Assembly (NCBI GenBank): GCA_050115675.1
Contig: JASFQB010000001.1
Span: 1,352-65,351, forward strand
Direction of reading: 5' to 3'
DNA: 64,000 nt
Origin: Candidatus Woesebacteria bacterium
GTDB lineage: Bacteria; Patescibacteriota; Saccharimonadia; Saccharimonadales; EFPC-124
Made by a program: the position numbers and the translations under genes
Shown: positions 8,106 to 55,084 of the stretch, in pieces
Layout: each line of letters begins with the position of its first letter
Numbering within the stretch: the first letter of the stretch is position 1
Notes under the pieces: model-generated
Database searches by the model: none
Told to the model about the DNA's origin: nothing
Seen by the model: only the letters and a program-made list of their open reading frames with translations

Positions 8106-8780
8106 GTGATAAACTTTGGATTGATGATTAAAAACACTGACAAGCTATTTATTACTCGCAAACGCAAAAAATGGAAGTTTGCCCATTTTGCCGATTGGCA
8201 AAATTGTTTTGAGGTTTCTGAGGTTAACCCAAAGCAATGGAGTTCCCCGTTAGTCATCGAAGTTGGCGCCGGGACGGCCGATTTGAGTGTTGGCTTGGCA
8301 AAGCTTCAGCCTCAAAACAATTTTGTCGCGATAGACGTTAAAGCTGATCGTTTGTACACGGGCGCAAAGTTTTGTTTGCAAAATGATATTAAAAATATCA
8401 ACTTTGCAAGATCACATGCTGCGCAGATTGAGGAGCTGTTTAGGCCACATACTGTGGATAAAGTGTGGATAACTTTTCCTGATCCGTTTCCTCGTGACCG
8501 CCAGGCCAAGCACAGGTTGACAAACAGATCGTTCTTAAAGATATATCAAAAACTTTTAGCACCTGGCGGAGTTGTTCATTTTAAAACAGATAACCGCGAG
8601 CTATTTTTGTGGAGTTTAGAGCAAATTGTGGCTGACGGCTGGCGTATTAACGAGCTAAGTTTTGATTTGCACGAAAGCAATTTGCCCGAGCACTACAAAA
8701 TTACAACGTTTTACGAGCGCAAATTTATGGCGCAAGGCGTGCCAATAAATATGGTAAGTTTTACCAAATCTGACATGTAG
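8106..8780 (+). CDS. trmB: tRNA (guanine46-N7)-methyltransferase
   Basis: SAM motif VEVGAGTAD and the TrmB signature ITFPDPFPRDRQAKHRL. The start could be ATG 8124. Confidence 0.85.
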   Translation: MINFGLMIKNTDKLFITRKRKKWKFAHFADWQNCFEVSEVNPKQWSSPLVIEVGAGTADLSVGLAKLQPQNNFVAIDVKADRLYTGAKFCLQNDIKNINFARSHAAQIEELFRPHTVDKVWITFPDPFPRDRQAKHRLTNRSFLKIYQKLLAPGGVVHFKTDNRELFLWSLEQIVADGWRINELSFDLHESNLPEHYKITTFYERKFMAQGVPINMVSFTKSDM

Positions 8781-8839
8781 CAGTGATGGTTTACGCTTTT
8801 GGCTAACTAGACTATACTTTAGGTAGTAAGATCAAAATT

Positions 8840-10669
8840 ATGCCAGAACAACAAAAAACATCATACAATTTAAACAAAAAGTCAGATCAGCTAAAATCTT
8901 TTGATGACGATGTAGCTAAAATTGAGCAAGCTGAAAAAGCCAGCCAAGAAAAAACAGAGTTTTTTAAGCCATCGCCTAGCGGTCTTGCACAGTCAACAAG
9001 GCCAGATAGTTTTAAGGGTAAGCTTAAAAAACTGCTAAAAAGTCGCAAATTTTGGATTTTGACTGCACTGTCATTGACTGCTTGTTTGATTGCTGCTTGG
9101 TTTGTTCAGCCCAGCAGGCTATGGTTGGTAAATTTGCTTGGACAAAGAACTAGCTTAAATATTACAGTATCTATTCCTGCAGATGGCAAGCAAGAGGCTT
9201 CAAAGCTCCAAAATGCCATAGTTATGGTGAATGGCAAAGAATACAAAACCAACCAAGAAGGGGTCGTAAATATTACAGACCAGTCTTATGGCCAAGTTGA
9301 TATTGATGTGACAAAAAATGGCTACGAATCTGTAAATTTAAAACGCACACTAGATTTTGACCCATTCTTTTATGTATGTGGTGGGCGGCAGGCAGATGAA
9401 GACGTGCGCAATATAGAATTTAGCCTAACTTCTGTTGGAATTGCAACTGCTTTTAAGGCCGTAGATTGGCTAAGCGGCCAGCCAATTACTTCTGGCGAAT
9501 ACCAAGTCGGCGACTTAAAAGTCAAGCCGGATGATACGGGTTTGGTAGAGTTTAAGGCTCCCCCAAGCGACAACAGTAAAGTAAGCTTAACGAGCATTTT
9601 TGAGGGTGAGTACATAGACAAAACTTTTGAAGTTGATTCTGGCGCAGAAAAGGTTGCAGTAGTAGAATTTGTGCCCGCAGGCAGACAGTACTTTACCAGC
9701 AAAAAAGATGGCGCTCTTGGAATTTACAGCAGCAATATTGACGGAAGTGATCAAAAGCTTGTAATTTCGGGCACAGGTAAAGAAACTGATTATACTCCAT
9801 TTGTTGTTTCGCCTGACGGCAAATATGGCTTGCTGGCTAGTACCCGAGATGGTGCTAAAGACGACAAACATGCTTTATTGCAATATCTATACATTGTTGA
9901 CCTTGAAAAGCGTTTGCTGACAAAAATTGACGAAGCGCATTATTTTGCCTTTACTGATTGGTCTGATGACGTAATGGTTTACCAAAAACAGCAAACGGCG
10001 AATATTACAGACGAAAATTCAATCGCACAGCTACGAGCTGTAGATGTATCTACTGGTAATTTGCAAGATATTGCTACAGCTGCAAGCTTTGGTCGTAAGA
10101 TTGTTGGACTGCAGCAGGTTGCCTACGTGCAAAGAATAAGAGACAAAATTGGCGACACGTACACCACAAGCTTTAATCGTTATGACTTAAAAAACTCCTC
10201 CGCAAAAGAGCTTGCCACTGGAGTGGTAGACAATAATGTGGTTCAGGCAAGCTTTGACGTTGTAGGCTTTCAGACTCAATCAGACCAAAAATGGCACGAA
10301 TACAATTTAAATGCTAGCGCACTAAAAGATAGCGCTCAACCCACTGCCTCAACTTCAAAAGCATATATAAATGGTGCCAGTCCAAATAACAAAAATCGCC
10401 TAATCGTAGACAGAATCGACGGTAAATTTACAATAATCGCTAAAAGTATTGATGATGGTGCAGAAAAACAAATATTTGGAGATGGTGCTCTGACAGGACA
10501 GGTGAGATGGCTGCAAGACAATGTAATTACGTTTAGAATTGTTAGTGATCAACAGACGGCAGACTATGCGGTGTCAATAAAAGGCGGAGAGCCAAAAAAG
10601 ATTTCGGACGTCACTGCTATAGTGGATAGCCAAAATATCAGAGATATTAACACTTTTGAATTTTATTAA
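8840..10669 (+). CDS. Membrane-anchored extracytoplasmic protein with TolB-like (PD40/WD40-like) beta-propeller repeats
   Basis: 609 aa with one TM helix near residue 70 and repeats such as YFTSKKDGALGIYSSNIDGSDQK and VSPDGKYGLLAS. Confidence 0.6.
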   Translation: MPEQQKTSYNLNKKSDQLKSFDDDVAKIEQAEKASQEKTEFFKPSPSGLAQSTRPDSFKGKLKKLLKSRKFWILTALSLTACLIAAWFVQPSRLWLVNLLGQRTSLNITVSIPADGKQEASKLQNAIVMVNGKEYKTNQEGVVNITDQSYGQVDIDVTKNGYESVNLKRTLDFDPFFYVCGGRQADEDVRNIEFSLTSVGIATAFKAVDWLSGQPITSGEYQVGDLKVKPDDTGLVEFKAPPSDNSKVSLTSIFEGEYIDKTFEVDSGAEKVAVVEFVPAGRQYFTSKKDGALGIYSSNIDGSDQKLVISGTGKETDYTPFVVSPDGKYGLLASTRDGAKDDKHALLQYLYIVDLEKRLLTKIDEAHYFAFTDWSDDVMVYQKQQTANITDENSIAQLRAVDVSTGNLQDIATAASFGRKIVGLQQVAYVQRIRDKIGDTYTTSFNRYDLKNSSAKELATGVVDNNVVQASFDVVGFQTQSDQKWHEYNLNASALKDSAQPTASTSKAYINGASPNNKNRLIVDRIDGKFTIIAKSIDDGAEKQIFGDGALTGQVRWLQDNVITFRIVSDQQTADYAVSIKGGEPKKISDVTAIVDSQNIRDINTFEFY

Positions 10670-18323: not shown

Positions 18324-18399
18324 TGGTGGGGCCAGCTGGATTTGAACCAGCGACCAATCGGTTATGAGCCGACTGCTCTAACCACTGAGCTATGGCCCC
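18324..18399 (-). tRNA. tRNA with anticodon CAT (elongator Met or lysidine-dependent Ile2), CCA encoded
   Basis: Cloverleaf by hand: acceptor GGGGCCA/TGGCCCC, D arm, anticodon stem GTCGG/CCGAT with loop CTCATAA, and T arm GCTGG-TTCAAAT-CCAGC. There is no initiator hallmark. Confidence 0.9.
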
Positions 18400-22228: not shown

Positions 22229-22305
22229 CGCGGGGTAGAGCAGTCTGGCAGCTCGCTTGGCTCATAACCAAGAGGTCGTAGGTTCAAATCCTACCCCCGC
22301 TACCA
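22229..22305 (+). tRNA. Initiator-type tRNA-fMet (anticodon CAT), CCA encoded
   Basis: 5' CGCGGGG and 3' CCCCGCT-A-CCA give an unpaired position 1-72 (C1xU72), the bacterial initiator hallmark. The anticodon loop is CTCATAA and the T arm is GTAGG-TTCAAAT-CCTAC. Confidence 0.9.
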
Positions 22306-29684: not shown

Positions 29685-29761
29685 GGCAGCGTAGCTCAGT
29701 CGGTTAGAGCGTAGGACTCATAAGCCTAAGGTCACTGGTTCAATCCCAGTCGCTGCTACCA
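29685..29761 (+). tRNA. tRNA-Met elongator-type (anticodon CAT), CCA encoded
   Basis: Acceptor GGCAGCG/CGCTGCT (G1-U72), anticodon stem TAGGA/GCCTA region with loop CTCATAA, and T arm ACTGG-TTCAATC-CCAGT. Confidence 0.9.
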
Positions 29762-39847: not shown

Positions 39848-40619
39848 ATGGACCTCAAGTTTATCAAGTCTAGCACTGAGGCTGCGTATCTCAGCGACTG
39901 GCGTCTGATTCCAGTTGATGAGTGTGGCGGAAGCTCTTGTTAAGATTGATGATGACGTGGCTTATTCTTGGTACTGTCATGAAATGTGACTGACGCGCGA
40001 TGCTAACCTCTATCTTCGCGAAAGAGTGTATGAGATGTTCAACAAGGCGCGTAGCTCCCTAGGGGGGATTGGCTATGACCTTAGAGTATATGATGCCTGG
40101 CGCCCTGTCGATCTTCAGGAAGAGCTCTTTTGGTACTATCTTAAGCTTTTTACTATCAAGCCGTTTGGGCTGGAGGAATTCTTTTCATCTTGTCAGAATG
40201 GTGAGCAGATTGTAAATAAGCTTTCAGAGTTGCCTCAGGGCTTGCAGGACAAGCTTAAAGAGGTTAACAGGCAATATGTAAGTTGGCCGTCAACAGATGT
40301 CAAGTGCCCAAGTCCTCATGCGACAGGTGGTGCAGTTGACGTTTGGCTTTTTGAAGATGATAAGCCTGCAGATCTGGGTGTGCCATTTGATTGGATGGAA
40401 GCTAGTGCAGGAGCATTCTATCATTTGGGTAGCAGTGTGCAGCCTTGGCCCTCGGGCGATGATCTTGCAGTAAACTTCCGTCGCGAAATCTTGATTCGCG
40501 CCATGGTCTCTGCTGGGTTTACGTGCTATCCGCATGAGGTTTGGCACTTTAACTTTGGCAATCAGATGGATGCCGTCGTTAGGGGAGGTGGAGCTCGCTA
40601 TGGTTATGTAGAGCCATAG
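39848..40619 (+). pseudogene. ddpX: D-alanyl-D-alanine dipeptidase (VanX/DdpX, peptidase M15D), disrupted
   Basis: The catalytic part is intact from GTG 40026 (YDAWRP, SPHATGGAVDVWL, EVWHFNFG). The N-terminal ~60 codons are in pieces: ATG 39848 in another frame, a 1-nt frameshift near 39926-39931, and an in-frame TGA at 39987-39989. Confidence 0.75.
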
Positions 40620-40627
40620 CTAACAAT

Positions 40628-40666
40628 ATGGCGACGTGAGAACAAAAGCTTTTCTTACGTCGCCAT
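40628..40666. terminator. Bidirectional terminator hairpin atggcgacgt...acgtcgccat
   Basis: Perfect 10-bp stem between convergent ddpX and ddl. Confidence 0.7.
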
Positions 40667-41739
40667 TATATACAACTCGATAAGTTGCTTTTATTATATT
40701 TTTCAATAGCAAACTCGATTAACATAGTAATCAAGTCGCTGTAAGACACGCCGCTAGCTTGCCACAGCTTGGGGTACATACTGATCTTGGTAAAACCTGG
40801 TATTGTATTTATTTCGTTTACTAAAATATCTCCGTCGTTTGCCACAAACATGTCAACGCGACTCATACCCTCGCATTCCATAACTTGATACGTTTTGAGT
40901 GCAATGTCACGTGCTTTTTTGGCAACTTGGGGCGAAATTTTGGCTGGAATTTGCAAAATTGCGCCATTCTCGTCTAAATATTTTGCCTCGTAACTGTAAA
41001 AGTCACCTTCGCGAGGTATAATTTGCCCGATCTCTGAGGTCTGTGGGTTGGCATTGCCAAGTATAGAGCATTCTATTTCTTGGCCTTCTATGGCACTTTC
41101 AATAATTATTTTTGTATCGTGCTTAAATGCTTCATTTATCGCTACATCAAGTTCAGTGGCATTATGTGCCTTTTTAATACCAACCGACGAGCCCATATTT
41201 GCAGGCTTTACAAATACAGTTTGTCCGAGTTTTTTAAAGATATCGCCAGGCAAAATATCATTTTTTTGATGAATTCTAAACGATAAGTATGCAGCTGTGG
41301 CAATGCTGGCATTTTGTAAAAGCCGCTTCATTACTTCTTTGTCCATGCATAAAGCCGAACTTAAAACGCCTGGGCCAACGTATGGTACATCTAAAAGCTC
41401 AAATAAACCCTGAACAGTGCCGTCTTCGCCAAATGGTCCATGCAGAATTGGCATAGCAACATCTATTTTATGTTTGTGGCCGTCTGCGCAGGTTAGTTCA
41501 TTGCTGCCAGGAGTTATAGATAAGAGATTGTTCGATTTTGAATTAATTTGCAATTGATTATTGCCTGGTTGCTGTAAGCACCATTGCCCGTTTTTTGCAA
41601 TTCCAATCAGCAGTAAATTGAATTTATCTTTATCAATTGCATCAATAATATTTTTGGCGGACATTATTGAGACTTCGTGTTCGGCAGATTTGCCGCCAAA
41701 AAGAACGGCAACATTTATTTTGGACAGAGTAGTGTTCAT
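40666..41739 (-). CDS. ddl: D-alanine--D-alanine ligase
   Basis: N-terminal VAVLFGGKSAEHEVS, an ATP-grasp core, and C-terminal EINTIPGFT. Confidence 0.92.
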   Translation of the reverse strand: MNTTLSKINVAVLFGGKSAEHEVSIMSAKNIIDAIDKDKFNLLLIGIAKNGQWCLQQPGNNQLQINSKSNNLLSITPGSNELTCADGHKHKIDVAMPILHGPFGEDGTVQGLFELLDVPYVGPGVLSSALCMDKEVMKRLLQNASIATAAYLSFRIHQKNDILPGDIFKKLGQTVFVKPANMGSSVGIKKAHNATELDVAINEAFKHDTKIIIESAIEGQEIECSILGNANPQTSEIGQIIPREGDFYSYEAKYLDENGAILQIPAKISPQVAKKARDIALKTYQVMECEGMSRVDMFVANDGDILVNEINTIPGFTKISMYPKLWQASGVSYSDLITMLIEFAIEKYNKSNLSSCI

Positions 41740-47226: not shown

Positions 47227-48048
47227 GTGTCTATCGAAGAATACTATCGTACAGATGATACTGCCGAAGGTAAAATTATTACCGTTCTGGATCCATCCAG
47301 CGGCAGCCCACTTTTGTCAAATATCCCACCGTATTGTTTAATGCAAGATCCAAGGCTTAAGATTGGTGCGGATTTTTTAAGTAAAATCGGCAGGCGTTTA
47401 ACAATTAACTTGGTTCTTTCAACGCATGGAGCGTCAACAGATATGGCGTGCGTCATTAATCAACGTCCAGAAGCTTTTAGCGGAATTGTTCCGTTTTGCG
47501 GTGTTGAGACGGATTGGAAATCTGATGGTTCTGATTTTCCGTCAGGCCCTAGTGTGATTTTTGCAGCTGGATCTCAAGGTCGTAAAGAGTTTCAAGCTGC
47601 ACAGCTAAAATGGCTTGACGAGCAGCATATCGCGCCGTTGCCTTGCGAGTATGAAGAAACAAGGCCAACAGAGCTATCAAAACACCTTAACTATCTTTTG
47701 AGCGTTTACTCAAGTGCTGGTAAAGATTCTTTGCCGCAAAAACGTGACTCCGCGATTGCACTAGGCGTATATCAGGCGATTCGTCACTGGATTATGCCTA
47801 TGCAGCTTGGATATTGGTTGAGTCGACTAGATATCGCAGGTGCTTTGCCAAAAACATCGCCAATGTATGTTCCGCTTATTTTGGGGAGCTGGCATGCTCC
47901 AACTGAGTTTAAGATTGGGCGGTTGGGCGCGAATGCTTTGACGTATCGTGTAGTCACCGGAAACGAATGTGGCTCTGGTAGCTCGTTTATGAAACTTGTC
48001 AAAACCGGTTGTTTGCCAGAATCTGACATCATGAATCTGTTGACTTAA
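47227..48048 (+). CDS. Hypothetical protein (273 aa), GC-elevated
   Basis: GTG start after AAGGG. A terminator hairpin lies at 48054-48080. Confidence 0.5.
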   Translation: MSIEEYYRTDDTAEGKIITVLDPSSGSPLLSNIPPYCLMQDPRLKIGADFLSKIGRRLTINLVLSTHGASTDMACVINQRPEAFSGIVPFCGVETDWKSDGSDFPSGPSVIFAAGSQGRKEFQAAQLKWLDEQHIAPLPCEYEETRPTELSKHLNYLLSVYSSAGKDSLPQKRDSAIALGVYQAIRHWIMPMQLGYWLSRLDIAGALPKTSPMYVPLILGSWHAPTEFKIGRLGANALTYRVVTGNECGSGSSFMKLVKTGCLPESDIMNLLT

Positions 48049-48087: not shown

Positions 48088-48852
48088 CTAAATCGTAAAA
48101 GTGCCGCAGCTAGGCGTTAGTATCGCATTGCGTATGCCGCGTTTAGTTCTGGTTAGCCTGTGAACGAAGTTGTCTTTAGCGCTCAAAACCTTTGCCGTTC
48201 TGCCTATGACTTGCAGTGCGGCATGATTGTCGATTCCCCAGCCAATGTAGTTCTGCTCTCTGGTAAAAAGCATTTGCGCAAAAGCGCTGCTGCGTCTTTC
48301 TTTTGTTTGGGGGTGCAGCGTGTTGTAATGTGGGCAGGCTAAGCTGTTGAATAGTCCTAGTGCTTCAACTTCGCAATACTGCCAAGGCTGGTTGCTGTCG
48401 ACATCGTAGCTGTCGCTATCGCTGCAGCCTCCTGTAAACCATGCCAGCGCCCCAGCGCTAATCCCGCAAGCAACAACCGTGCCGGCACAAACGCGCTGCG
48501 ACAAGATGGCGCTAATGCCAGATTCTACCCAAATCCTTACAGCGTGTCTTGTGTCGCCTCCAGAAATATAGATCATATCTGCCCATTGCATAAGTCGACA
48601 TGTCCTTTTAATGCTGGGCCGCTTGTCGAATGGGTGAAGTACCTCAACGTTAAGACCGGATTTGCGTTCGTATAACTCGGTGAAGTTGTAAATCGCAAGG
48701 TCGTAGGCGTCTTGGGTGCGCTTTGGGGTCGGTATGTAAAGGACTCTTGGCCTCTGTTTGCCCGTCATGTCTAAGGCGGTGTTAACGTGCATGCTACAAT
48801 TGCTAGCCGGGTTGCCTCCACCAATGGCCACAAGGCGCATATTGTTAGTCAT
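48088..48852 (-). CDS. Peptidase S51 family (dipeptidase E / cyanophycinase-like)
   Basis: VAIGGGN, YISGGDT and the nucleophile region CGISAGA. Confidence 0.7.
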   Translation of the reverse strand: MTNNMRLVAIGGGNPASNCSMHVNTALDMTGKQRPRVLYIPTPKRTQDAYDLAIYNFTELYERKSGLNVEVLHPFDKRPSIKRTCRLMQWADMIYISGGDTRHAVRIWVESGISAILSQRVCAGTVVACGISAGALAWFTGGCSDSDSYDVDSNQPWQYCEVEALGLFNSLACPHYNTLHPQTKERRSSAFAQMLFTREQNYIGWGIDNHAALQVIGRTAKVLSAKDNFVHRLTRTKRGIRNAILTPSCGTFTI

Positions 48853-48962
48853 GATGCATACCTTACCATAGTTAAAGCGGTGTGTAAATGGCCTAAAGTT
48901 GATTAATGCTGGTTAATATGTTATAGTTATTAATAATAACTATTTACACAAAAAGGTTTTGC

Positions 48963-49898
48963 ATGCTAAAAATGACTAGCCAACTTATTTTTGATGAACT
49001 TGCTTCCCGTGGCATTGCAGTAGAAGTGTTTGATTTGCAGGCAGGCATTTTGCGATATAGGCACAATAACAGATGGCATTATATATTTAGTAGTCGCCCA
49101 GAAAGCACAAGCGCAATTGGTGCAAAAATTTGTGACGAAAAAAACCTGACCACAAAACTTGCTATTGATCTTGGTGTGTTATCGCCAGCAACTTTGTTTT
49201 ATAGCGATGTATTGACGGCAAAAGATTTTTTAAGTAAGCACAAAATTATTGTTGTAAAGCCTTTGGATGCTTCGCATGGCAATGGCATTACTGTAAATGT
49301 TAAGACCGAGGAAGGCCTAAAAAATGCCTGTAATGTTGCAAGTGCAGCAAGCGAAACAGGTCAGATTATTTTACAGCAGCAGGTAACTGGTGACGATCTG
49401 CGCGTTTTAGTGATAGGTGGTAAATATGTGGCAGCCTGCCAAAGAATTCCAGCGCGAGTTTTTGGTAACGGTAAAAGCACGATTTTGCAACTAATTGAGC
49501 ACGAAAACCAAACAAACTCTTTGCGTGATTATGATTATAAAAATCAGCTAAATGTAATTGATTTAGGTGCTGCAAAGCGTTATTTAAAAGATCAAATAAA
49601 TAGCATTCCAGCAGATGGGCAAGAGGTCAGGGTGGTAGGCACGGCTAATATGGGTACTGGCGGTGAAGCTATTGATATCACAAACACGTTGCCAAGCCAA
49701 ATAATTAAAGACGCCGAAAAACTAGCCCAAGCTCTTAAAATTACTGCCTGTGGCGTTGATTTTATGTATAATTCAAAAACTCAAGAGTATAACTTTATTG
49801 AGGCAAATAGCACCCCAAGCTTTGGCCTGCACGAAAACCCAACACATGGTCAGGCTCAGCCAGTTACAAAGCGGTTTGTAGAGTACATTTTAAGTTAA
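48963..49898 (+). CDS. ATP-grasp ligase resembling the ATP-grasp (G) domain of cyanophycin synthetase / GshAB
   Basis: VVKPLDASHGNGITVNV, RIPARVFGNGKSTILQLIEHENQ, ANMGTGGEAIDIT and IEANSTPSFGLHENP parallel the CphA G-domain pattern. No Mur-ligase-like M domain is present. Confidence 0.7.
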   Translation: MLKMTSQLIFDELASRGIAVEVFDLQAGILRYRHNNRWHYIFSSRPESTSAIGAKICDEKNLTTKLAIDLGVLSPATLFYSDVLTAKDFLSKHKIIVVKPLDASHGNGITVNVKTEEGLKNACNVASAASETGQIILQQQVTGDDLRVLVIGGKYVAACQRIPARVFGNGKSTILQLIEHENQTNSLRDYDYKNQLNVIDLGAAKRYLKDQINSIPADGQEVRVVGTANMGTGGEAIDITNTLPSQIIKDAEKLAQALKITACGVDFMYNSKTQEYNFIEANSTPSFGLHENPTHGQAQPVTKRFVEYILS

Positions 49899-49987
49899 AG
49901 TGTTATAAAAGCGCCAACTAAAAAGCAGCTGTTAAAAGGTATATTGACTATTTGGCCAGGTTGACGTACACTCTATAAACAGTCAGA

Positions 49988-50096
49988 TTTGCTGGCGCCT
50001 CGCCTAGAGTCAAAGTGGCTCTAGCTAATCGAGAGGGTGTGGTTAAGCGGGGCTTATTAGCTTCATTGCCAACGACGGAATCCTTGGCGCTGCAAA
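49988..50096 (+). promoter_or_regulatory. Candidate structured 5' leader (three-helix junction; riboswitch- or attenuator-like, class unknown)
   Basis: A closing helix pairs TTTGCTGGCGCC (49988-49999) with GGCGCTGCAAA (50086-96). Internal hairpins are CTAGAG/CTCTAG (50004-50024) and GCTAAT/ATTAGC (50024-50061). A TTGACT-17-TACACT promoter lies at ~49946-49974. Confidence 0.35.
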
Positions 50097-50139
50097 GCAT
50101 CAGATCAATGCGTATGTTGATAGGCATACAACTGCGAGT

Positions 50140-50427
50140 ATGCGATACCTAACCCCGCGACAGACTTGCTTTTTGCTCGACAAATATAATTTTGGGAATG
50201 GACTTGCTCCTATGAACAGAGGTAGAAGCAGGTTTACGACGCCGATTCATGCGATGCTTGATGACGGCAGGGAAGTTGCTGTTGCCTTTGGAATTGGAGC
50301 GTGTCATGGCCAGACGCTAATTGCACGCGGCTATCTAGGTCAAGAGCAGTTTTATGCACATCGGAGCGGACATGACCACTATGGTCCCAATGGCGAACTC
50401 TATGGAGATCGAGGCTGCATAGACTGA
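50140..50427 (+). CDS. Hypothetical protein (95 aa), GC-elevated; coding status uncertain
   Basis: ORF without an obvious SD. A terminator hairpin at ~50434-50464 follows. Confidence 0.35.
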   Translation: MRYLTPRQTCFLLDKYNFGNGLAPMNRGRSRFTTPIHAMLDDGREVAVAFGIGACHGQTLIARGYLGQEQFYAHRSGHDHYGPNGELYGDRGCID

Positions 50428-50488
50428 AAGACGGGGGTGGATGTTTTGTCCACCCCTCATTTATAAAATAACATGATAAAGTAATGAC

Positions 50489-50980
50489 ATGCATGAGTCA
50501 TCTAAAGATAGCTACGATAAGCCAATTAGCCATCTACTTACTGCCCAACTTGGTTTGGCAGAAGGCTTAATGATTGCGGCAGAGACTGCGGCAAAAAATA
50601 AAGACGTTGACACTATTAGCGATTTGATTGATTATTTGATTAGCTCGGTTTTTATTTTAGATTATATCGAGATTGATTTTGTAACTTTTATGAGGGAGTA
50701 CTTTGATACTCTTATTAATTGTGTCAAAAATGATCTTGACCCTATTAGAGATAAAGAGACGATGCGCGCACGCAATGTTGTGGTAGAAGATATGATAGAG
50801 GCTGCAGCCAGATACGATGACCCAACATATACCTTATGGTCGTCTCCGGACGAGTATAATGGGCTGTTGGCCAACTTTGAGCTTAACCAGGCAACATTGA
50901 GCAGGCCATATAAAGATCTTGCCTCGGAGGTGGCAAAAAAACCAAGCAAAAAAATGCTATGGTTTTTTGGTAAAAAATAG
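50489..50980 (+). CDS. Hypothetical protein (163 aa)
   Basis: ORF only; predicted helical. Confidence 0.45.
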   Translation: MHESSKDSYDKPISHLLTAQLGLAEGLMIAAETAAKNKDVDTISDLIDYLISSVFILDYIEIDFVTFMREYFDTLINCVKNDLDPIRDKETMRARNVVVEDMIEAAARYDDPTYTLWSSPDEYNGLLANFELNQATLSRPYKDLASEVAKKPSKKMLWFFGKK

Positions 50981-50985
50981 GCTAT

Positions 50986-52215
50986 TTACGGTTTCGTCAC
51001 AACATGTACATGCTTATTAACAAAGTCTAAATCTTTGTTAAATTGCTCTGCATCGCTGTTGTGTAGTACAACAATTGCGCACATTTTGTAGCCGTCTGCC
51101 GCTTTGCCAACAAAATCTCCTTGGCTGGCTTTTGGTATTAAATTGTTTAGCGACGGTAGTTTTAATAACTTGTCTTCGCCTGCTATGCCTACAAAAAATC
51201 CTGGATTTTTAGGAAACAGCTCTAATACTGCGCAAGACTCGTTTTTAGATGCAGTAACTTGAGGATCTTTACCCATAGCCAAAGCTATAGCTGCACCGTC
51301 AATGTCTAGCCCGTTTGCCAGTTTGTGCATGCGTTCTCGGTATCCACCGTTGCGGGCGCCAATTTCTACGATGCGCGGGCCATCTTTGGTTATAATTATT
51401 TCTATATGGGCAGGTGAGTTTTTCATACCCAAAGCTTTAACGCCAAGTTCTGCACATTTTTTAAACGCTTTTTGGTCTGTGGCACTTAATTTGCTTGGGA
51501 GCAATCTGCTGTAATGAAAATTGTCGTTGTAGCCTATATCGTAGCCAGTTTGGTAATCTACTATGTGATCTAAGATGTGTGGGATGCCATCGTCACCCGT
51601 AAAGGCGTCAACAGAGTGCACAGAACCTTCTAAAAACTCTTCGATAAGCATTCGTGGTTTGCGATGAGGCGCATATTTAGAGTAAATTGCATCTATTTGG
51701 CTAATAGATCGTTCGTAGTTACCCAAAAGCTCCTCGATGTCATGATTTTTTGTAACTAAAAGGCTTTTTGCCAGGTTTGCGGGCTTTAAAATTAGCGGAA
51801 AGCTGTGTGTATTGGCAAAATTAATTACATCTGCTTGGCTATCTATAAGCGCAAAATCAGGACTGATTTTTTGTGGAGCTTTTGCAAACAGGTTACGCAT
51901 TAAAAATTTATCCGTACAGGCCCCTATGCTTTTAATTGGCATGCCTGGCAAGTTAAGATGTTCTGCAATCCAGGCTGCGGGCAGGGCGTAATTTTCGTAG
52001 GTGTTTACTATAAAATCAACTGGTTTTTTGATAGAATCAACAGCTGCAAGGATGCTTTGTTTGCTGGAAAAATCACAAACAACCCTTCTTTTAAAACGCT
52101 TATGAGGAGATTTAGCTTTAAGCGCGTCTTTTAACAGAATATAATCATAATCGTTACCTTTTAAATAGCTCATTAAGCCACTAAAACCGCTACCAACAAT
52201 TAACGCTCGTGCCAT
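50986..52215 (-). CDS. ATP-grasp domain protein (L-amino-acid-ligase-like, ATP-grasp_4 type)
   Basis: 409 aa with FPLILKPANLAKS, LIEEFLEG and the IVEIGARNGG motifs of the ATP-grasp fold. Confidence 0.7.
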   Translation of the reverse strand: MARALIVGSGFSGLMSYLKGNDYDYILLKDALKAKSPHKRFKRRVVCDFSSKQSILAAVDSIKKPVDFIVNTYENYALPAAWIAEHLNLPGMPIKSIGACTDKFLMRNLFAKAPQKISPDFALIDSQADVINFANTHSFPLILKPANLAKSLLVTKNHDIEELLGNYERSISQIDAIYSKYAPHRKPRMLIEEFLEGSVHSVDAFTGDDGIPHILDHIVDYQTGYDIGYNDNFHYSRLLPSKLSATDQKAFKKCAELGVKALGMKNSPAHIEIIITKDGPRIVEIGARNGGYRERMHKLANGLDIDGAAIALAMGKDPQVTASKNESCAVLELFPKNPGFFVGIAGEDKLLKLPSLNNLIPKASQGDFVGKAADGYKMCAIVVLHNSDAEQFNKDLDFVNKHVHVVTKP

Positions 52216-52300
52216 GGTACTTGAAAAATATCCCTTTTTATGCTATATTAAGTCTACTTCTGTATGGTAATGCAATTATAACGTATTGTAAAGAATAAAT

Positions 52301-52795
52301 ATGTCTAGACGAGATTTTCACAAAGTAATTATTGGACGATCAGAATCACTTAGCTTTGTTGGCCACGATATTGTTGGCGTTCCAGCAAAGACCGACACTG
52401 GTGCCTACAGATCTGCTGTTCATGCAAGTGATATTAAGCTTAACCCTAAAACGGGCTTGCTTTCTTTTGTGTTGCTTGGCAACCATCCAGTTTGTGGTAA
52501 TATGAGCACAAAGACCGAGGTTAAAAGCTTTAAGAAGGTATCTATCGAAAACTCTTTTGGGCACTCAGAAGAGCGATACGAAGTAAAACTTAAAGTCAAA
52601 CTTGGTCCAAAGGTCTTTATGGCTCGTTTTACTTTGGCCGATCGCAGCAAAAAGATTTACCCAATTTTACTTGGGCGTAAGCTGCTAAACGATCGCTTTT
52701 TGGTCGATTCAGCCGAATCGGCAATTAATCGCGTAATGTTGCGTGAGCGATACAGCGTGGCATTTCCTGATGACGAAGAAGAAAGGCGGGAATAA
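52301..52795 (+). CDS. RimK-associated retropepsin-like protease (DUF785, annotated as 'ATP-dependent zinc protease', RimB-like)
   Basis: AKTDTGAYRSAVHA and TLADRSKKIYPILLGRKLL..RFLVD; directly upstream of rimK. Confidence 0.7.
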   Translation: MSRRDFHKVIIGRSESLSFVGHDIVGVPAKTDTGAYRSAVHASDIKLNPKTGLLSFVLLGNHPVCGNMSTKTEVKSFKKVSIENSFGHSEERYEVKLKVKLGPKVFMARFTLADRSKKIYPILLGRKLLNDRFLVDSAESAINRVMLRERYSVAFPDDEEERRE

Positions 52796-52797
52796 AA

Positions 52798-53703
52798 ATG
52801 AAAATTGCAATCTTATCACGTGGTCCAGGCAACTATACTACAAAACGCCTTAAAGAAGAGGCTGTTAAGCGTGGTCACGAAGTAAAAGTTATTAGTTATA
52901 CTAAATGCTATGTTGGCATAGAGTCTAGTCACCCCGTCGTGCGCTACGAAGGTAAAGACCTTGAGGGCTTTGATGCAATTATTCCAAGGATTGCGCAGTC
53001 TTACACGCGCTATGGTACGGCTATCGCTCGCCAATTTGAGATGCAAGGCGTTTATAGTACCGCTAGCTCTATTGCTATTGCTCGCTCCAGGGACAAGCTG
53101 CGTTCTATGCAGGTTTTGGCACGAGCTGGGGTTGGTATTCCAAAAACTCTTATCGCTAACGAAACTTATCAGTACGATGACCTTATTCAGCAGGCAGGTG
53201 GTGCGCCCTTAATTATTAAAGTTGCACGCGGCACACATGGTAACGGCGTAGTTTTAGCCGAAACCGCCAAAGCAGCCAAGGCTGTAATGCAGGCGTTTTA
53301 CGTAGAAAATGTAAGCTTTTTTGTGCAAGAGTTTGTAAAAGAGTCCATGGGTACGGATATTCGTGCAATTGTTGTTGGCAACAAAGTCGTTGCAAGTGTT
53401 CAGAGGCAAAGCTTAGATGACGATTTTAGGTCAAATACTCATCAGGGTGGAGTTGCTAAGCCAATTAAATTGTCTGAAGAAGAGCGCCAAACGGCCATAA
53501 AAGCTGCAAAAGCCATGGGCTTGCCAGTTTGTGGTGTAGACATGATGCGATCGTCCAGAGGGTCGCTGGTACTAGAGGTCAATTCCTCGGCTAGCTTTAG
53601 GGCTCCAGAAACCATGACCAGCCGAAACGTGGCTGTAAAAGTCATAGAATATATAGAGCAAAACGCCAAGAGGCGCAACAAAAAAGATCGCGTTGGTGCT
53701 TAA
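52798..53703 (+). CDS. rimK: Ribosomal protein S6--L-glutamate ligase RimK (ATP-grasp)
   Basis: MKIAILSR..., IIKVARGTHGNGV, FVQEF, and the GVDMM...LEVNSS pattern. Confidence 0.85.
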   Translation: MKIAILSRGPGNYTTKRLKEEAVKRGHEVKVISYTKCYVGIESSHPVVRYEGKDLEGFDAIIPRIAQSYTRYGTAIARQFEMQGVYSTASSIAIARSRDKLRSMQVLARAGVGIPKTLIANETYQYDDLIQQAGGAPLIIKVARGTHGNGVVLAETAKAAKAVMQAFYVENVSFFVQEFVKESMGTDIRAIVVGNKVVASVQRQSLDDDFRSNTHQGGVAKPIKLSEEERQTAIKAAKAMGLPVCGVDMMRSSRGSLVLEVNSSASFRAPETMTSRNVAVKVIEYIEQNAKRRNKKDRVGA

Positions 53704-53726: not shown

Positions 53727-54191
53727 GTGCAGGCAAATATTGATAAAAAAATCTTAAACATCGTTTTAGCAACTACGTTGTTAATGATTTTTGTTTGCTC
53801 GTTAATCTTTATAGTCAGCTTTTACGGCAGGTATAGCGCAGATGTATATATTGGGGGAGCCCAAGTTAAAGCAAAGGTGGCCGATGATGATGTTGAGCGG
53901 CAAAAGGGCTTGTCTGGCACTAATCAGCTTAATCAGGGTGACGGAATGTTATTTGTTTTTGATTATCCAGCAGATTGGCCGATATGGATGAAAGACATGA
54001 GGTATCCAATTGATATCGTATGGATGGACGAAGACAAAAAAGTGGTGGATGTGGCGGTTGAAGTATCCCCAGATAGTTACCCAGAGCAATTTGTGCCTAA
54101 AAAGGCTGCAAAATACGTTTTAGAATTGCCATCAGGCTTTGTAAAGCAATATAGCGTAGAAGTTAACACTATGGCAGCCTTTGCGTATTAA
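53727..54191 (+). CDS. DUF192 family protein (membrane-anchored)
   Basis: GLSG....GDGMLFVF......WMKDMRYPIDIVWMD motif. Confidence 0.7.
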   Translation: MQANIDKKILNIVLATTLLMIFVCSLIFIVSFYGRYSADVYIGGAQVKAKVADDDVERQKGLSGTNQLNQGDGMLFVFDYPADWPIWMKDMRYPIDIVWMDEDKKVVDVAVEVSPDSYPEQFVPKKAAKYVLELPSGFVKQYSVEVNTMAAFAY

Positions 54192-54220: not shown

Positions 54221-54697
54221 ATGAACGGACTAATTGTAATATCTGTTTTGCTGGTGGTGCTGTTTGCTGCTGCGTACTTTTCTAAGCGGCGTTTTGGCGC
54301 TTTGGGGTTGGCCTTGTGTGCGGGAGCTTTGCTTAGTAAAAGCTGGGCATCTATGTTAACTCCTATACTAGAGAGTTACGGTTTTTATGTGGATATGCCA
54401 CCGCTATCGGTTATTGTTACTGTTGGGTTGGTGCTTTTGCCGGCAATCGTATTGTTGTTTAGTGGTCCAAGCTACAAAACAGCAGCCGGTCAAATAGGGG
54501 GTGCTATAGCATTCGCTGTTTTTGCTTTTGTCTTAATAATGGATCCGTTGGGCGCGGCAATAAATTTTGACGGCATAACTTATAATATTTACAAAGTAGT
54601 TACAGATTACAGCACGCTGATAATCGCCGCTGCCATTTGCCTGGCCATTGGCGATATGCTGGTTGTAAGAACAAAGCACGGCAAACACGGAAAGTAA
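54221..54697 (+). CDS. Integral membrane protein (4-5 TM helices), function unknown
   Basis: Hydrophobic ORF. Confidence 0.55.
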   Translation: MNGLIVISVLLVVLFAAAYFSKRRFGALGLALCAGALLSKSWASMLTPILESYGFYVDMPPLSVIVTVGLVLLPAIVLLFSGPSYKTAAGQIGGAIAFAVFAFVLIMDPLGAAINFDGITYNIYKVVTDYSTLIIAAAICLAIGDMLVVRTKHGKHGK

Positions 54698-54788: not shown

Positions 54789-54865
54789 GGGTCCATAGCT
54801 CAGCCGGTTAGAGCACCTGCCTTTTAAGCAGGGTGTCCTGGGTTCGAGTCCCAGTGGACCCTCCA
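54789..54865 (+). tRNA. tRNA-Lys (anticodon TTT), CCA encoded
   Basis: Acceptor GGGTCCA/TGGACCC, anticodon stem CCTGC/GCAGG with loop CTTTTAA, and T arm CTGGG-TTCGAGT-CCCAG. Confidence 0.92.
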
Positions 54866-54899
54866 CGAAAAATACCTCATCGTAAGATGGGGTGTTTTT
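54845..54899 (+). repeat. Direct repeat copy 1: last 21 nt of tRNA-Lys (from mid T-loop) plus 34 nt including its terminator
   Basis: 55/55 identical to 55030-55084. Confidence 0.95.
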
Positions 54900-55029
54900 T
54901 CGTGAGAAGTTTAATAATGTGTCTCGAACCCAGGTGTTCTGGGTGAGAACTGCCAGCGGCAGTTCGCAAGAGAATCAACTCTTGAAAACTGGTTTTCAAA
55001 GATGTTGTTCTGGGGCCGCGGAACGTGGC
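54900..55029. other. 130-bp insert between the tRNA-Lys 3'-end direct repeats
   Basis: It carries an inverted exact 12-nt copy of the tRNA-Lys T-arm (54923-54934 versus 54837-54848). It also has a hairpin CCCAG-gtgtt-CTGGG (54929-54943) and an 8-bp hairpin GAACTGCC-agc-GGCAGTTC (54947-54965). No ORF is present. Confidence 0.85.
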
Positions 55030-55084
55030 CGAGTCCCAGTGGACCCTCCACGAAAAATACCTCATCGTAAGATGGGGTGTTTTT
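55030..55084 (+). repeat. Direct repeat copy 2 (orphan tRNA-Lys 3' fragment plus terminator)
   Basis: 55/55 identical to 54845-54899. Confidence 0.95.

Follow-up and report, generated by a model that had tools for sequence, protein, structure and literature searches.

RimK, an ATP-grasp ligase, extends a C-terminal carboxylate with alpha-linked glutamates, either on ribosomal protein S6 or as free poly-alpha-glutamate, and RimB is an endopeptidase that cuts such poly-glutamate tails and not dipeptides (PMC11957791). In Pseudomonas the two belong to the RimABK system (PMC11957791, PMC10092738), and hybrids of RimB- and RimK-type domains have also been described (Little et al. 2025, PMC11957791). 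In cyanophycin synthetase CphA1, a protein of ~880 amino acids (aa), an ATP-grasp G domain stands beside N and M domains; its Arg323 and Asn394 bind the beta-carboxylate of aspartate, Arg458 holds the alpha-carboxylate of the incoming aspartate and Glu215 holds the arginine of the primer (PMC9427784). Here we describe a locus in which relatives of these enzymes lie side by side, at positions 48088 to 53703 of a 64,000-nucleotide (nt) stretch of contig JASFQB010000001.1, the whole of which we call the window. The locus holds a RimB/RimK pair, a stand-alone ATP-grasp enzyme resembling the G domain of CphA1 (the G-like ligase), a further ATP-grasp enzyme of L-amino-acid ligase (LAL) type and a peptidase of family S51. 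We hold with moderate confidence that it is one form of a variable ligase/hydrolase island around RimB and RimK that would build and trim short peptide tails or oligomers.

The preliminary description of this DNA had proposed a non-ribosomal system that forms or tails peptides and has hydrolases paired with its ligases, and co-conservation, operon structure and gene fusions support a system of that kind. The same families recur in one slot, between dnaJ and a DUF192 gene, in 54 species-level genomes and in further metagenome contigs, and for this reason the cluster is not a chance juxtaposition. The open reading frames (ORFs) described between 48088 and 53703 were all recovered with the same boundaries and in the families that had been named for them, as judged by Pfam, NCBIfam and solved-structure matches. 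The features of the block, including two genes downstream of it, are as follows:

48088..48852, minus strand: S51-family serine peptidase, 254 aa (PF03575); variable accessory member of the island
48853..48962, no strand: intergenic, 110 nt, between the divergently transcribed S51 and G-like genes; promoter-like site at 48899-48927 (+)
48963..49898, plus strand: stand-alone G-domain-type ATP-grasp ligase, 311 aa; TIGR02068 positions 161-470
50140..50427, plus strand: unknown small ORF (orf95), 95 aa, or 71 aa by gene caller; lineage-specific
50489..50980, plus strand: unknown ORF (orf163), 163 aa; lineage-specific, within a recombined tract
50986..52215, minus strand: LAL-type ATP-grasp enzyme, 409 aa (PF13535); best structures are L-amino-acid ligases
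52216..52300, no strand: intergenic, 85 nt, between the divergently transcribed LAL-type and rimB genes; sigma-70-like promoter towards rimB-rimK
52301..52795, plus strand: RimB-like retropepsin-type aspartic endopeptidase, 164 aa (PF05618); DTG at residue 32
52798..53703, plus strand: RimK, ribosomal protein S6 / poly-alpha-L-glutamate ligase, 301 aa; NF007764 equivalog
53727..54191, plus strand: DUF192 protein with N-terminal hydrophobic segment (PF02643, 91 bits)
54221..54697, plus strand: multi-pass membrane protein, 158 aa; no family match; ends the syntenic block

A stand-alone CphA1-type G domain

Sequence and predicted structure together identify the 311-aa protein as a complete, stand-alone CphA1-type G domain with its catalytic residues intact. 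Against NCBIfam models it scored 194 bits for cyanophycin synthetase (TIGR02068, cut-off 850), 193 bits for NAGGN synthetase (TIGR03103, cut-off 569) and 174 bits for GshAB (NF002688, cut-off 425); none of the cut-offs was reached, and the matched parts were the G domain in the first model (positions 161-470) and the C-terminal halves of the other two (positions 240-540 and 432-750). By these comparisons the ligase falls in the clade of the CphA G domain, GshAB and NAGGN synthetase. Its best solved-structure match was TeCphA1 (7wac, E = 3e-36), with GshAB and CphA2 also matched, and the family profile run against the PDB ranked CphA1 (242 bits) ahead of GshAB (208 bits) and CphA2 (~200 bits). 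An AlphaFold2 (AF2) model built on a 38-sequence alignment had a predicted local distance difference test score (pLDDT) of 95 and a predicted template modelling score (pTM) of 0.90. In the Foldseek ranking of this model CphA1 G domains came first (7wae, template modelling (TM) score 0.86-0.87), followed by CphA2 (0.85) and GshAB (3ln6, 0.81), and the parallel with the CphA G domain that the preliminary description had drawn thus holds in profile, solved-structure and model comparisons alike. The whole domain, with core, lid and omega parts, is common to the ligase and the CphA1 structures (TeCphA1 7wac/7wae, SuCphA1 7lg5).

Residues of TeCphA1 (PMC9427784) were transferred to the window ligase through a pairwise alignment, and their conservation was read in 38 homologues:

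TeCphA1 Lys220: window K60, invariant
TeCphA1 Lys261: window K99, invariant
TeCphA1 His267 (P-loop): window H105, in 90% or more of the homologues
TeCphA1 Arg309: window R147, invariant
TeCphA1 Arg323: window R161, invariant
TeCphA1 Asn394: window N229, invariant
TeCphA1 Asp431: window D266, invariant
TeCphA1 Glu450: window E280, invariant
TeCphA1 Asn452: window N282, invariant

The ATP, Mg and acyl-phosphate residues of the CphA1 G domain are all kept, as is the arginine that in CphA1 binds the terminal carboxylate of the acceptor. The histidine-bearing P-loop (LDxxHGxG) is common to the G-like family and CphA1, whereas GshAB reads KSTNFGLG. Because the G-domain residues of CphA1 are preserved, the expected chemistry is the addition of an amino acid to a C-terminal carboxylate at the expense of ATP.

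In other respects the ligase departs from CphA1. Arg458 is replaced by Gly288 (family motif PSFGLH, against PGFRMH in CphA) and Glu215 by Lys55 in a variable column, and the sequence carries no sign of cyanophycin-type substrate recognition. The N domain, which anchors the polymer, and the MurE-like M domain are both absent, the 311 aa aligning to CphA1 residues ~163-480. CphA2 (7ta5, 8fxh) also works through its G-domain active site only, but it retains the N domain together with a shortened M domain (~630 aa), neither of which the G-like ligase has, and polymerises beta-Asp-Arg. The C-terminal module of GshAB/GshF and the ATP-grasp half of Ngg belong to the same clade; unlike them, the G-like ligase has no fused GshA or GNAT domain. 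Its gene, unlike that of CphA1, is not linked to a cyanophycinase gene, its partners being genes for RimB/RimK, the LAL-type ligase, a MATCAP-like peptidase or an S51 peptidase. A split CphA with a separate Mur ligase was considered and rejected: the window encodes a single Mur ligase, a MurC-like protein 35 kb away, and the 54 islands contain none.

Homologues of the ligase are likewise stand-alone proteins of 305-345 aa, and the 150 best profile matches (representatives of 50%-identity clusters) are mostly stand-alone, with 300-345 aa. Four longer proteins of 750-2400 aa (P0257, P0259, P0263, P0272) carry two to four tandem G-like ATP-grasp domains with profile scores as high as those of the stand-alone family; among the tandem proteins scanned, several have an acylphosphatase domain and one an LPG_synthase_C domain.

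The ligase/hydrolase island in Saccharibacteria

A locus scan with a 15-sequence alignment, covering one genome per GTDB species, returned 80 loci. About 54 of them come from Saccharibacteria/Patescibacteria and contain a stand-alone homologue of 309-367 aa; the remainder hold full-length CphA1 (~880 aa) from Acidobacteriota and others and show no synteny. Gene content was determined by tblastn with the window proteins and then by clustering of conserved ORFs, which were called as longest ORFs passing a conservation filter. The tree of G-like proteins was built by neighbour-joining, and the co-occurrence statistics given below ignore phylogenetic relatedness.

The G-like genes occupy a single syntenic slot, in the order dnaK-dnaJ, variable genes, DUF192, a membrane protein of ~160 aa, comEC and yebC. 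The variable set consists almost wholly of ATP-grasp ligases and peptidases, namely the G-like ligase, RimK paralogues (K2), LAL-type ligases, RimB, RimK, MATCAP-like and S51 peptidases, together with GNAT proteins. Downstream of the G-like gene, 40 of the 54 loci encode a RimB domain and 39 encode RimK. At least one of RimK and a LAL-type gene is present in 50, the four exceptions being two loci at contig ends and two in different contexts. In 14 loci the distance from the G-like stop codon to the rimB start codon is between -50 and +56 nt, and in 11 of the loci it is 3 nt or less, often with overlap, which indicates an operon. Seven proteins are G::RimB fusions, five of them with the DTG motif kept, and their identity of only 34-68% over the full length means that the fusion is old or recurrent and has been retained. 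RimB::RimK-paralogue hybrids occur in three loci (L002, L003, L036) and are counterparts of the described RimBK hybrids. Operon structure and fusions thus couple the G-like ligase to RimB/RimK. Of the co-conservation that the preliminary description had expected, the part concerning the ligases and RimB/RimK holds across Saccharibacteria, while the pairing of S51 with the G-like ligase recurs in only 9 of the 54 loci.

A MATCAP-like metallopeptidase is found instead in 18 of the 54 loci, and in 12 it abuts the G-like gene (-44 to +76 nt), an adjacency that gives rise to a MATCAP-G-RimB-RimK operon. These proteins (440-535 aa; for example in L005 at 8575-9993, L010, L004 and L029) carry HExxH and match PF08014 (E = 7e-19 for L005), a TIGR02421-like family formerly known as DUF1704 or QEGLA-like. 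The predicted ORFs of the window with at least 90 aa include no such gene. In four loci a GNAT acetyltransferase gene lies between the MATCAP-like and G-like genes; the G-like gene of the window has none beside it. Genes upstream of the G-like gene that look, by eye, sortase-like (TLYTC motif) and GGDEF-like were also considered as hydrolase partners and set aside as probably unrelated neighbours.

At the core of the island in the window, rimB lies directly upstream of rimK with a gap of 2 nt. The RimB-like protein matches PF05618 with 64.8 bits and carries the catalytic DTG; on the RimB equivalog NF052261 (cut-off 200) it scores 58.3 bits and on the RloA3 model the same, below the cut-offs of both. 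A signal-peptide-like hydrophobic stretch is not visible at its N-terminus. RimK passes its equivalog cut-off (NF007764, 333.8 bits against 331), shows full-length matches to PF18030 (Rimk_N) and PF08443 (RimK), and is 96% identical in the closest relative (locus L088, whose G-like ligase is 79% identical), with a ratio of nonsynonymous to synonymous substitution rates (dN/dS) of 0.018. A search for rpsF in the window and in 1.49 Mb of compared loci gave no match. A DUF192 gene follows rimK in most loci, and the 158-aa membrane protein, which matches nothing in Pfam or NCBIfam, follows DUF192 or rimK in most. As in the RimABK system of Pseudomonas, then, a DTG retropepsin directly precedes an equivalog-level RimK; in contrast to that system, the island has no RimA and adds one to three further ATP-grasp ligases as well as S51 or MATCAP-like peptidases.

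The 409-aa enzyme is, by its sequence, probably a member of the L-amino-acid-ligase family with a branch of its own in Saccharibacteria. It matches ATP-grasp_4 (PF13535) with 67 bits and the C-terminal domain LAL_C2 with 28.3 bits, just under the cut-off of 29.4, and its best solved structures are the L-amino-acid ligases BL00235 (E = 7e-16) and BacD (E = 4e-10). It shares the ATP-grasp_4 core and, probably, the LAL-type C-terminal domain with BL00235 (3vot), BacD/YwfE (3vmm) and RizA (4wd3), but its score on the BacD equivalog is no higher than 38 bits (cut-off 850) and it forms a highly conserved family beside rimB or the G-like gene, one or other of which it always adjoins. Neither this enzyme nor the G-like ligase was placed in the Ddl, PurK or carboxylase families, so that both extra ATP-grasp enzymes lie outside these housekeeping groups. 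Its homologues fall into 718 clusters, more than 100 of them at 60-70% identity, a far wider spread than that of the G-like ligase or S51, and comparison with the closest relative indicates strong purifying selection (dN/dS 0.07). The gene lies on the opposite strand between the G-like gene and rimB in 14 of the 54 loci and in five further contexts, and a paralogue on the same strand, LAL(+), occurs in 11 loci. All three contexts retrieved with the LAL-type protein as seed show DnaJ, (K2), G-like, LAL, RimB, RimK and DUF192, and their G-like genes were confirmed by the family's hidden Markov model (162-343 bits).

The S51 peptidase belongs to a small, distinct subfamily and is an accessory, replaceable hydrolase of the island. 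It matches PF03575 with 112 bits (cut-off 23.9, E = 4e-32) and reaches the cut-off neither of the cyanophycinase model TIGR02069 (29.4 bits against 126.6) nor of the PepE model NF003642 (31.8 against 156). Ser132 (GISAGA) and His175 (PHYN) are invariant in alignments of 22 and 31 homologues, so that the nucleophile-elbow serine and the histidine are shared with PepE, cyanophycinase (CphB/CphE) and pseudo-CphB along with the fold; in contrast to them, the position of the PepE triad residue Glu192 is occupied by Asn (GIDN), with a preceding Asp that is not universal, and a segment GHSDSxSYR is specific to the subfamily. The AF2 model (pLDDT 95.7) is equidistant from the three (TM 0.66-0.71, 15-23% identity). 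Only 46 homologue clusters were found. We regard the peptidase as replaceable because it occurs in nine loci only, is scattered over the rough tree of G-like proteins and never accompanies a MATCAP-like gene (0/54, Fisher p = 0.02). All nine of its loci have a LAL-type gene, compared with 16 of the other 45 (p = 0.0004), and S51 may serve the LAL-type ligase instead of the G-like ligase. One further context (L082) reproduces the layout of the window.

Two divergent members of the G-like family stand in other surroundings. In a non-syntenic locus (P0090, L089) the gene belongs to a row with a seven-transmembrane (7TM) transglutaminase protein, an ATP-grasp/RimB-like protein and two more ATP-grasp genes, followed by a penicillin-binding protein gene. 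This context resembles the RloABC operon of Pseudomonas aeruginosa, which encodes a secreted retropepsin, a 7TM inactive transglutaminase and an ATP-grasp protein (PMC12239564). The window retropepsin, although its RloA3 score equals its RimB score, differs from that system in its N-terminus, as read from the sequence, and in having no 7TM-transglutaminase gene nearby in the window. The second member (P0089, L091:5169-6945) lies 25 nt downstream of a Peptidase_C26/GATase gene and adjoins a GCS2 carboxylate-amine ligase, which suggests another ligase/hydrolase pairing, possibly for gamma-glutamyl peptides.

Proposed scheme and competing readings

In the scheme that we favour, the known RimB/RimK pair forms the core of the island. 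By homology, the G-like ligase would use ATP to phosphorylate the terminal carboxylate of a peptide-like acceptor and then join the amino group of an incoming amino acid; extension of a terminal carboxylate is its most likely activity because its closest characterised relative and RimK both act in this way. It would thereby be a second "writer", acting on the peptide tail or oligomer that RimK extends or on a related one, and not a maker of cyanophycin. The hydrolase next to it would be the matching "eraser", S51 in the window, a MATCAP-like metallocarboxypeptidase elsewhere and a C26 peptidase in one distant genome. The LAL-type enzyme, encoded divergently from rimB, would be a third and very conserved ligase that probably makes or adds a dipeptide unit. 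The acceptor, the incoming substrates and the pairing of hydrolases with ligases are the parts of this scheme that we infer.

Several observations weigh against it. In the window, 2.4 kb lie between the G-like gene and rimB, with a gene on the opposite strand and a separate rimB promoter. RimK is not obligatory, since 11 species have the G-like ligase with a LAL(+) paralogue and neither RimB nor RimK; LAL(+) and RimK are mutually exclusive (p = 2e-7). S51 homologues also occur away from any ATP-grasp gene, once directly after dnaJ (L084) and once alone (L083), in a context that appears archaeal. Gene order in Saccharibacteria is well kept in general, dnaK-dnaJ and comEC-yebC included, so that inheritance of gene order may account for some of the co-occurrence. 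The GNAT gene beside the G-like gene in four loci recalls Ngg, a dipeptide synthetase of GNAT and ATP-grasp parts with a small-molecule product. Finally, a preference for aspartate, read from Arg161 and Asn229, was rejected, as GshAB carries the same residues, which are for this reason not diagnostic of the incoming amino acid.

The serious rival is a role in small-molecule peptide metabolism of the GshB or Ngg kind, which we consider unlikely but the best of the alternatives. The G-like ligase would then join free amino acids to a soluble di- or tripeptide (an osmolyte, a thiol or a storage compound), the LAL-type enzyme would make another dipeptide, S51, MATCAP-like and C26 peptidases would recycle the products, and RimB/RimK would be mere neighbours. 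Several findings fit such a role: the nearly equal NCBIfam scores for CphA, NAGGN synthetase and GshAB, the four GNAT genes, placed as in a split Ngg, the GCS2 ligase and the gamma-glutamyl-hydrolase-like C26 peptidase that flank the L091 member, the membership of the dipeptidase PepE among known S51 enzymes, and the presence of a LAL-type ligase at all nine S51 loci. On the other side, the rimB-rimK operon overlap and the deep, retained G::RimB fusions tie the ligase to an enzyme that cuts poly-glutamate tails rather than dipeptides (PMC11957791), the P-loop histidine is of the polymer-extending CphA type rather than the GshAB type, and the G-like gene of the window has no GNAT gene beside it.

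A possibility related to the favoured scheme, improbable in our estimation, is that several enzymes write a "C-terminal tail code", comparable to the tubulin code, on S6 or some other protein. The poly-glutamate tail would come from RimK, a different residue that caps or extends it would come from the G-like and possibly the LAL-type ligase, and interchangeable erasers (RimB, MATCAP-like, S51, C26) would remove specific parts of the tail; were this so, the variable content of the island would amount to species-specific tail chemistries. A comparison can be drawn with the cycle of tubulin tyrosine ligase (TTL) and MATCAP in eukaryotes, alongside bacterial QEGLA/DUF1704 proteins: in 18 relatives an ATP-grasp "writer" and a MATCAP-type "eraser" are likewise operonic. 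The comparison is an analogy only, the G-like ligase lying outside the TTL family and the larger ORFs of the window including no MATCAP-like gene.

That there is no joint system, and that independent genes are held together by kept gene order in an insertion-tolerant interval, is about as doubtful. Its flanks (dnaK, dnaJ, comEC, yebC) are equally syntenic; the interval also takes sortase-like, GGDEF and VKOR-like genes (motifs read by eye), glycosyltransferase and DUF3137 genes; a recent recombination tract lies inside it; and the window genes are transcribed separately. Mere synteny could explain the arrangement in the window, where four units are separately transcribed, but it fails for the overlapping start and stop codons, for the fusions that link G, RimB and RimK-type domains and for the recurrence of a similar combination in the different genomic context of L089, and the variable content is overwhelmingly made up of ATP-grasp ligases and peptidases.

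The preliminary description had seen in the S51 and G-like genes a cyanophycin-like pair without the Mur-ligase half, and we find it very unlikely that the two form a reduced system making and degrading poly-Asp or Asp dipeptides. It is true that CphA1 G domains are the closest structures and give the best profile score, that the histidine P-loop is shared, that the S51 family includes cyanophycinase and an Asp-specific dipeptidase, and that source databases label the proteins "cyanophycin synthetase" and "dipeptidase E", and that a 2026 preprint reads Saccharimonadia genomes in this sense. Against this, the N and M domains are missing, the ligase scores 194 bits where 850 are required, Arg458 has become Gly, the Glu215 column is not conserved, and the one Mur ligase of the window is MurC-like and distant. 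The pairing itself is not supported: S51 accompanies the ligase in a minority of loci, an unrelated metallopeptidase takes its place in twice as many, S51 tracks the LAL-type gene at least as well, and neither its score (29 against 127 bits) nor its structure, with the triad Glu replaced by Asn, makes it a cyanophycinase.

The slimmest chance goes to cell-wall chemistry, in which the ligases would add amino acids to the peptidoglycan stem peptide or cross-bridge and the peptidases trim them: some ATP-grasp enzymes do add cross-bridge residues, a Ddl and an M15 D-Ala-D-Ala-dipeptidase-like peptidase are encoded ~7-8 kb upstream and a penicillin-binding protein gene closes the ATP-grasp row in L089, but affinity to Ddl-type or known cross-bridge ligases is at superfamily level only, RimK passes the S6-ligase cut-off, the hrcA-grpE-dnaK-dnaJ operon separates the Ddl/M15 pair from the island, and the ligases and S51 are probably cytoplasmic, since by eye they lack an N-terminal hydrophobic stretch resembling a signal peptide.

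None of the component families is new in itself; the novelty lies in the stand-alone G-domain family, in the way it is coupled to RimB/RimK and in hydrolases that can take each other's place. Our literature search found no link between Saccharibacteria and RimK, none between MATCAP/DUF1704 and ATP-grasp enzymes (a 2009 survey of ATP-grasp/peptidase neighbourhoods may mention some associations), and no description of a stand-alone CphA G domain or of RimB fused to a CphA-G-type ligase. The finding bears on annotation: source records list the short proteins as "cyanophycin synthetase", "dipeptidase E" and "biotin carboxylase", the 2026 preprint relies on annotations of this kind when it infers cyanophycin metabolism in Saccharimonadia, and the sequence and model evidence says that they are not cyanophycin synthetases. 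It also defines a large uncharacterised family of stand-alone CphA-G-domain ligases, which may be minimal enzymes for extending peptides at the C-terminus and as such of interest to biotechnology. Work on RimB/RimK has so far dealt with Pseudomonas and E. coli; the island extends the pair to ultra-small epibiotic bacteria, and the operon of ATP-grasp and MATCAP-like genes places in a bacterial context a peptidase family that is known chiefly from the detyrosination of tubulin. An island of several ligases and peptidases suggests that post-translational or peptide chemistry is richer here than genomes of ~1 Mb would lead one to expect.

Transcription units, recombined tract and flanking genes

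The genes of the window form at least four transcription units and not a single operon. The S51 and G-like genes are divergent in four loci, with gaps of 42-110 nt, and the intergenic region of the window contains, as a consensus match only, TTGATT-17-TATAGT with an extended TG (48899-48927, plus strand). The region between the LAL-type gene and rimB contains a consensus-matching promoter pointing to rimB-rimK (TTGAAA-17-TATATT with TG, 52221-52249); a TTGACA...TATAAT-like pattern is visible upstream of rimB in most of 11 aligned loci, and the region is 96% identical to that of L088, above its coding flanks. A search for anti-phage defence with PADLOC gave zero matches among the island proteins.

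Between the G-like and LAL-type genes lie orf95 and orf163, which match no family in four libraries and, among the relatives examined, are both shared only by L088; that locus has the same layout as the window, with three small ORFs in this interval. The two proteins are 95% and 86% identical there, with synonymous divergence (dS) of 0.05 and 0.31 and dN/dS of 0.48 and 0.18, whereas neighbouring genes show a dS of about 0.75-2.2. A 1.2-kb block (49700-50900), which takes in orf95, orf163 and the final 200 nt of the G-like gene, is 88-99% identical to L088 at the nucleotide level, compared with mostly 61-85% in its flanks. Because of this identity and the low dS against diverged flanks, the sequence comparison marks 49700-50900 as a tract of recent recombination or horizontal transfer. 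Rfam gave no match within this tract. The idea that the small ORFs are precursor or carrier peptides was rejected on the grounds of their position in this tract, the lack of family matches and their absence from 80 other loci, in which tblastn found no match to orf95; they are probably lineage-specific cargo and not part of the core system. At the end of the block L088 has an extra insertion of 483 nt with a 138-aa ORF.

Upstream of the island, a fourth ATP-grasp enzyme, Ddl, and the M15 peptidase are encoded convergently at 40026-41739, directly before hrcA-grpE-dnaK-dnaJ. Ddl clearly belongs to housekeeping cell-wall chemistry, and the M15 protein, which scores weakly on the D-Ala-D-Ala dipeptidase model (48.7 bits against a cut-off of 176), adds a third peptidase within 14 kb of the island. 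A 273-aa ORF between dnaJ and the S51 gene (47227-48048) has no family match and was found only in L088 (69% identity, dN/dS 0.20); it appears to be a real lineage-specific gene.

Downstream of the island lies a tRNA-Lys(ttt) gene (54789-54865). A perfect 55-nt direct repeat (54845-54899 and 55030-55084, spacing 185 nt) duplicates the 3' end of this gene plus 34 nt, and the arrangement at 54789-55084 looks like the att-like scar of an integrated or excised element. Elsewhere in the window three tRNA-Met(cat) genes lie within 12 kb (18324-18399, 22229-22305 and 29685-29761), presumably of initiator, elongator and tRNA-Ile2 type. As to the source organism, identical proteins (P0001, P0137) carry the NCBI label Candidatus Woesebacteria, and the identical 311-aa protein also occurs in a Logan assembly. 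The syntenic relatives, with RimK identities of up to 79%, are all labelled Saccharibacteria, Saccharimonadales or Patescibacteria, and the metagenome-assembled genome of the window may be misclassified by its NCBI label.

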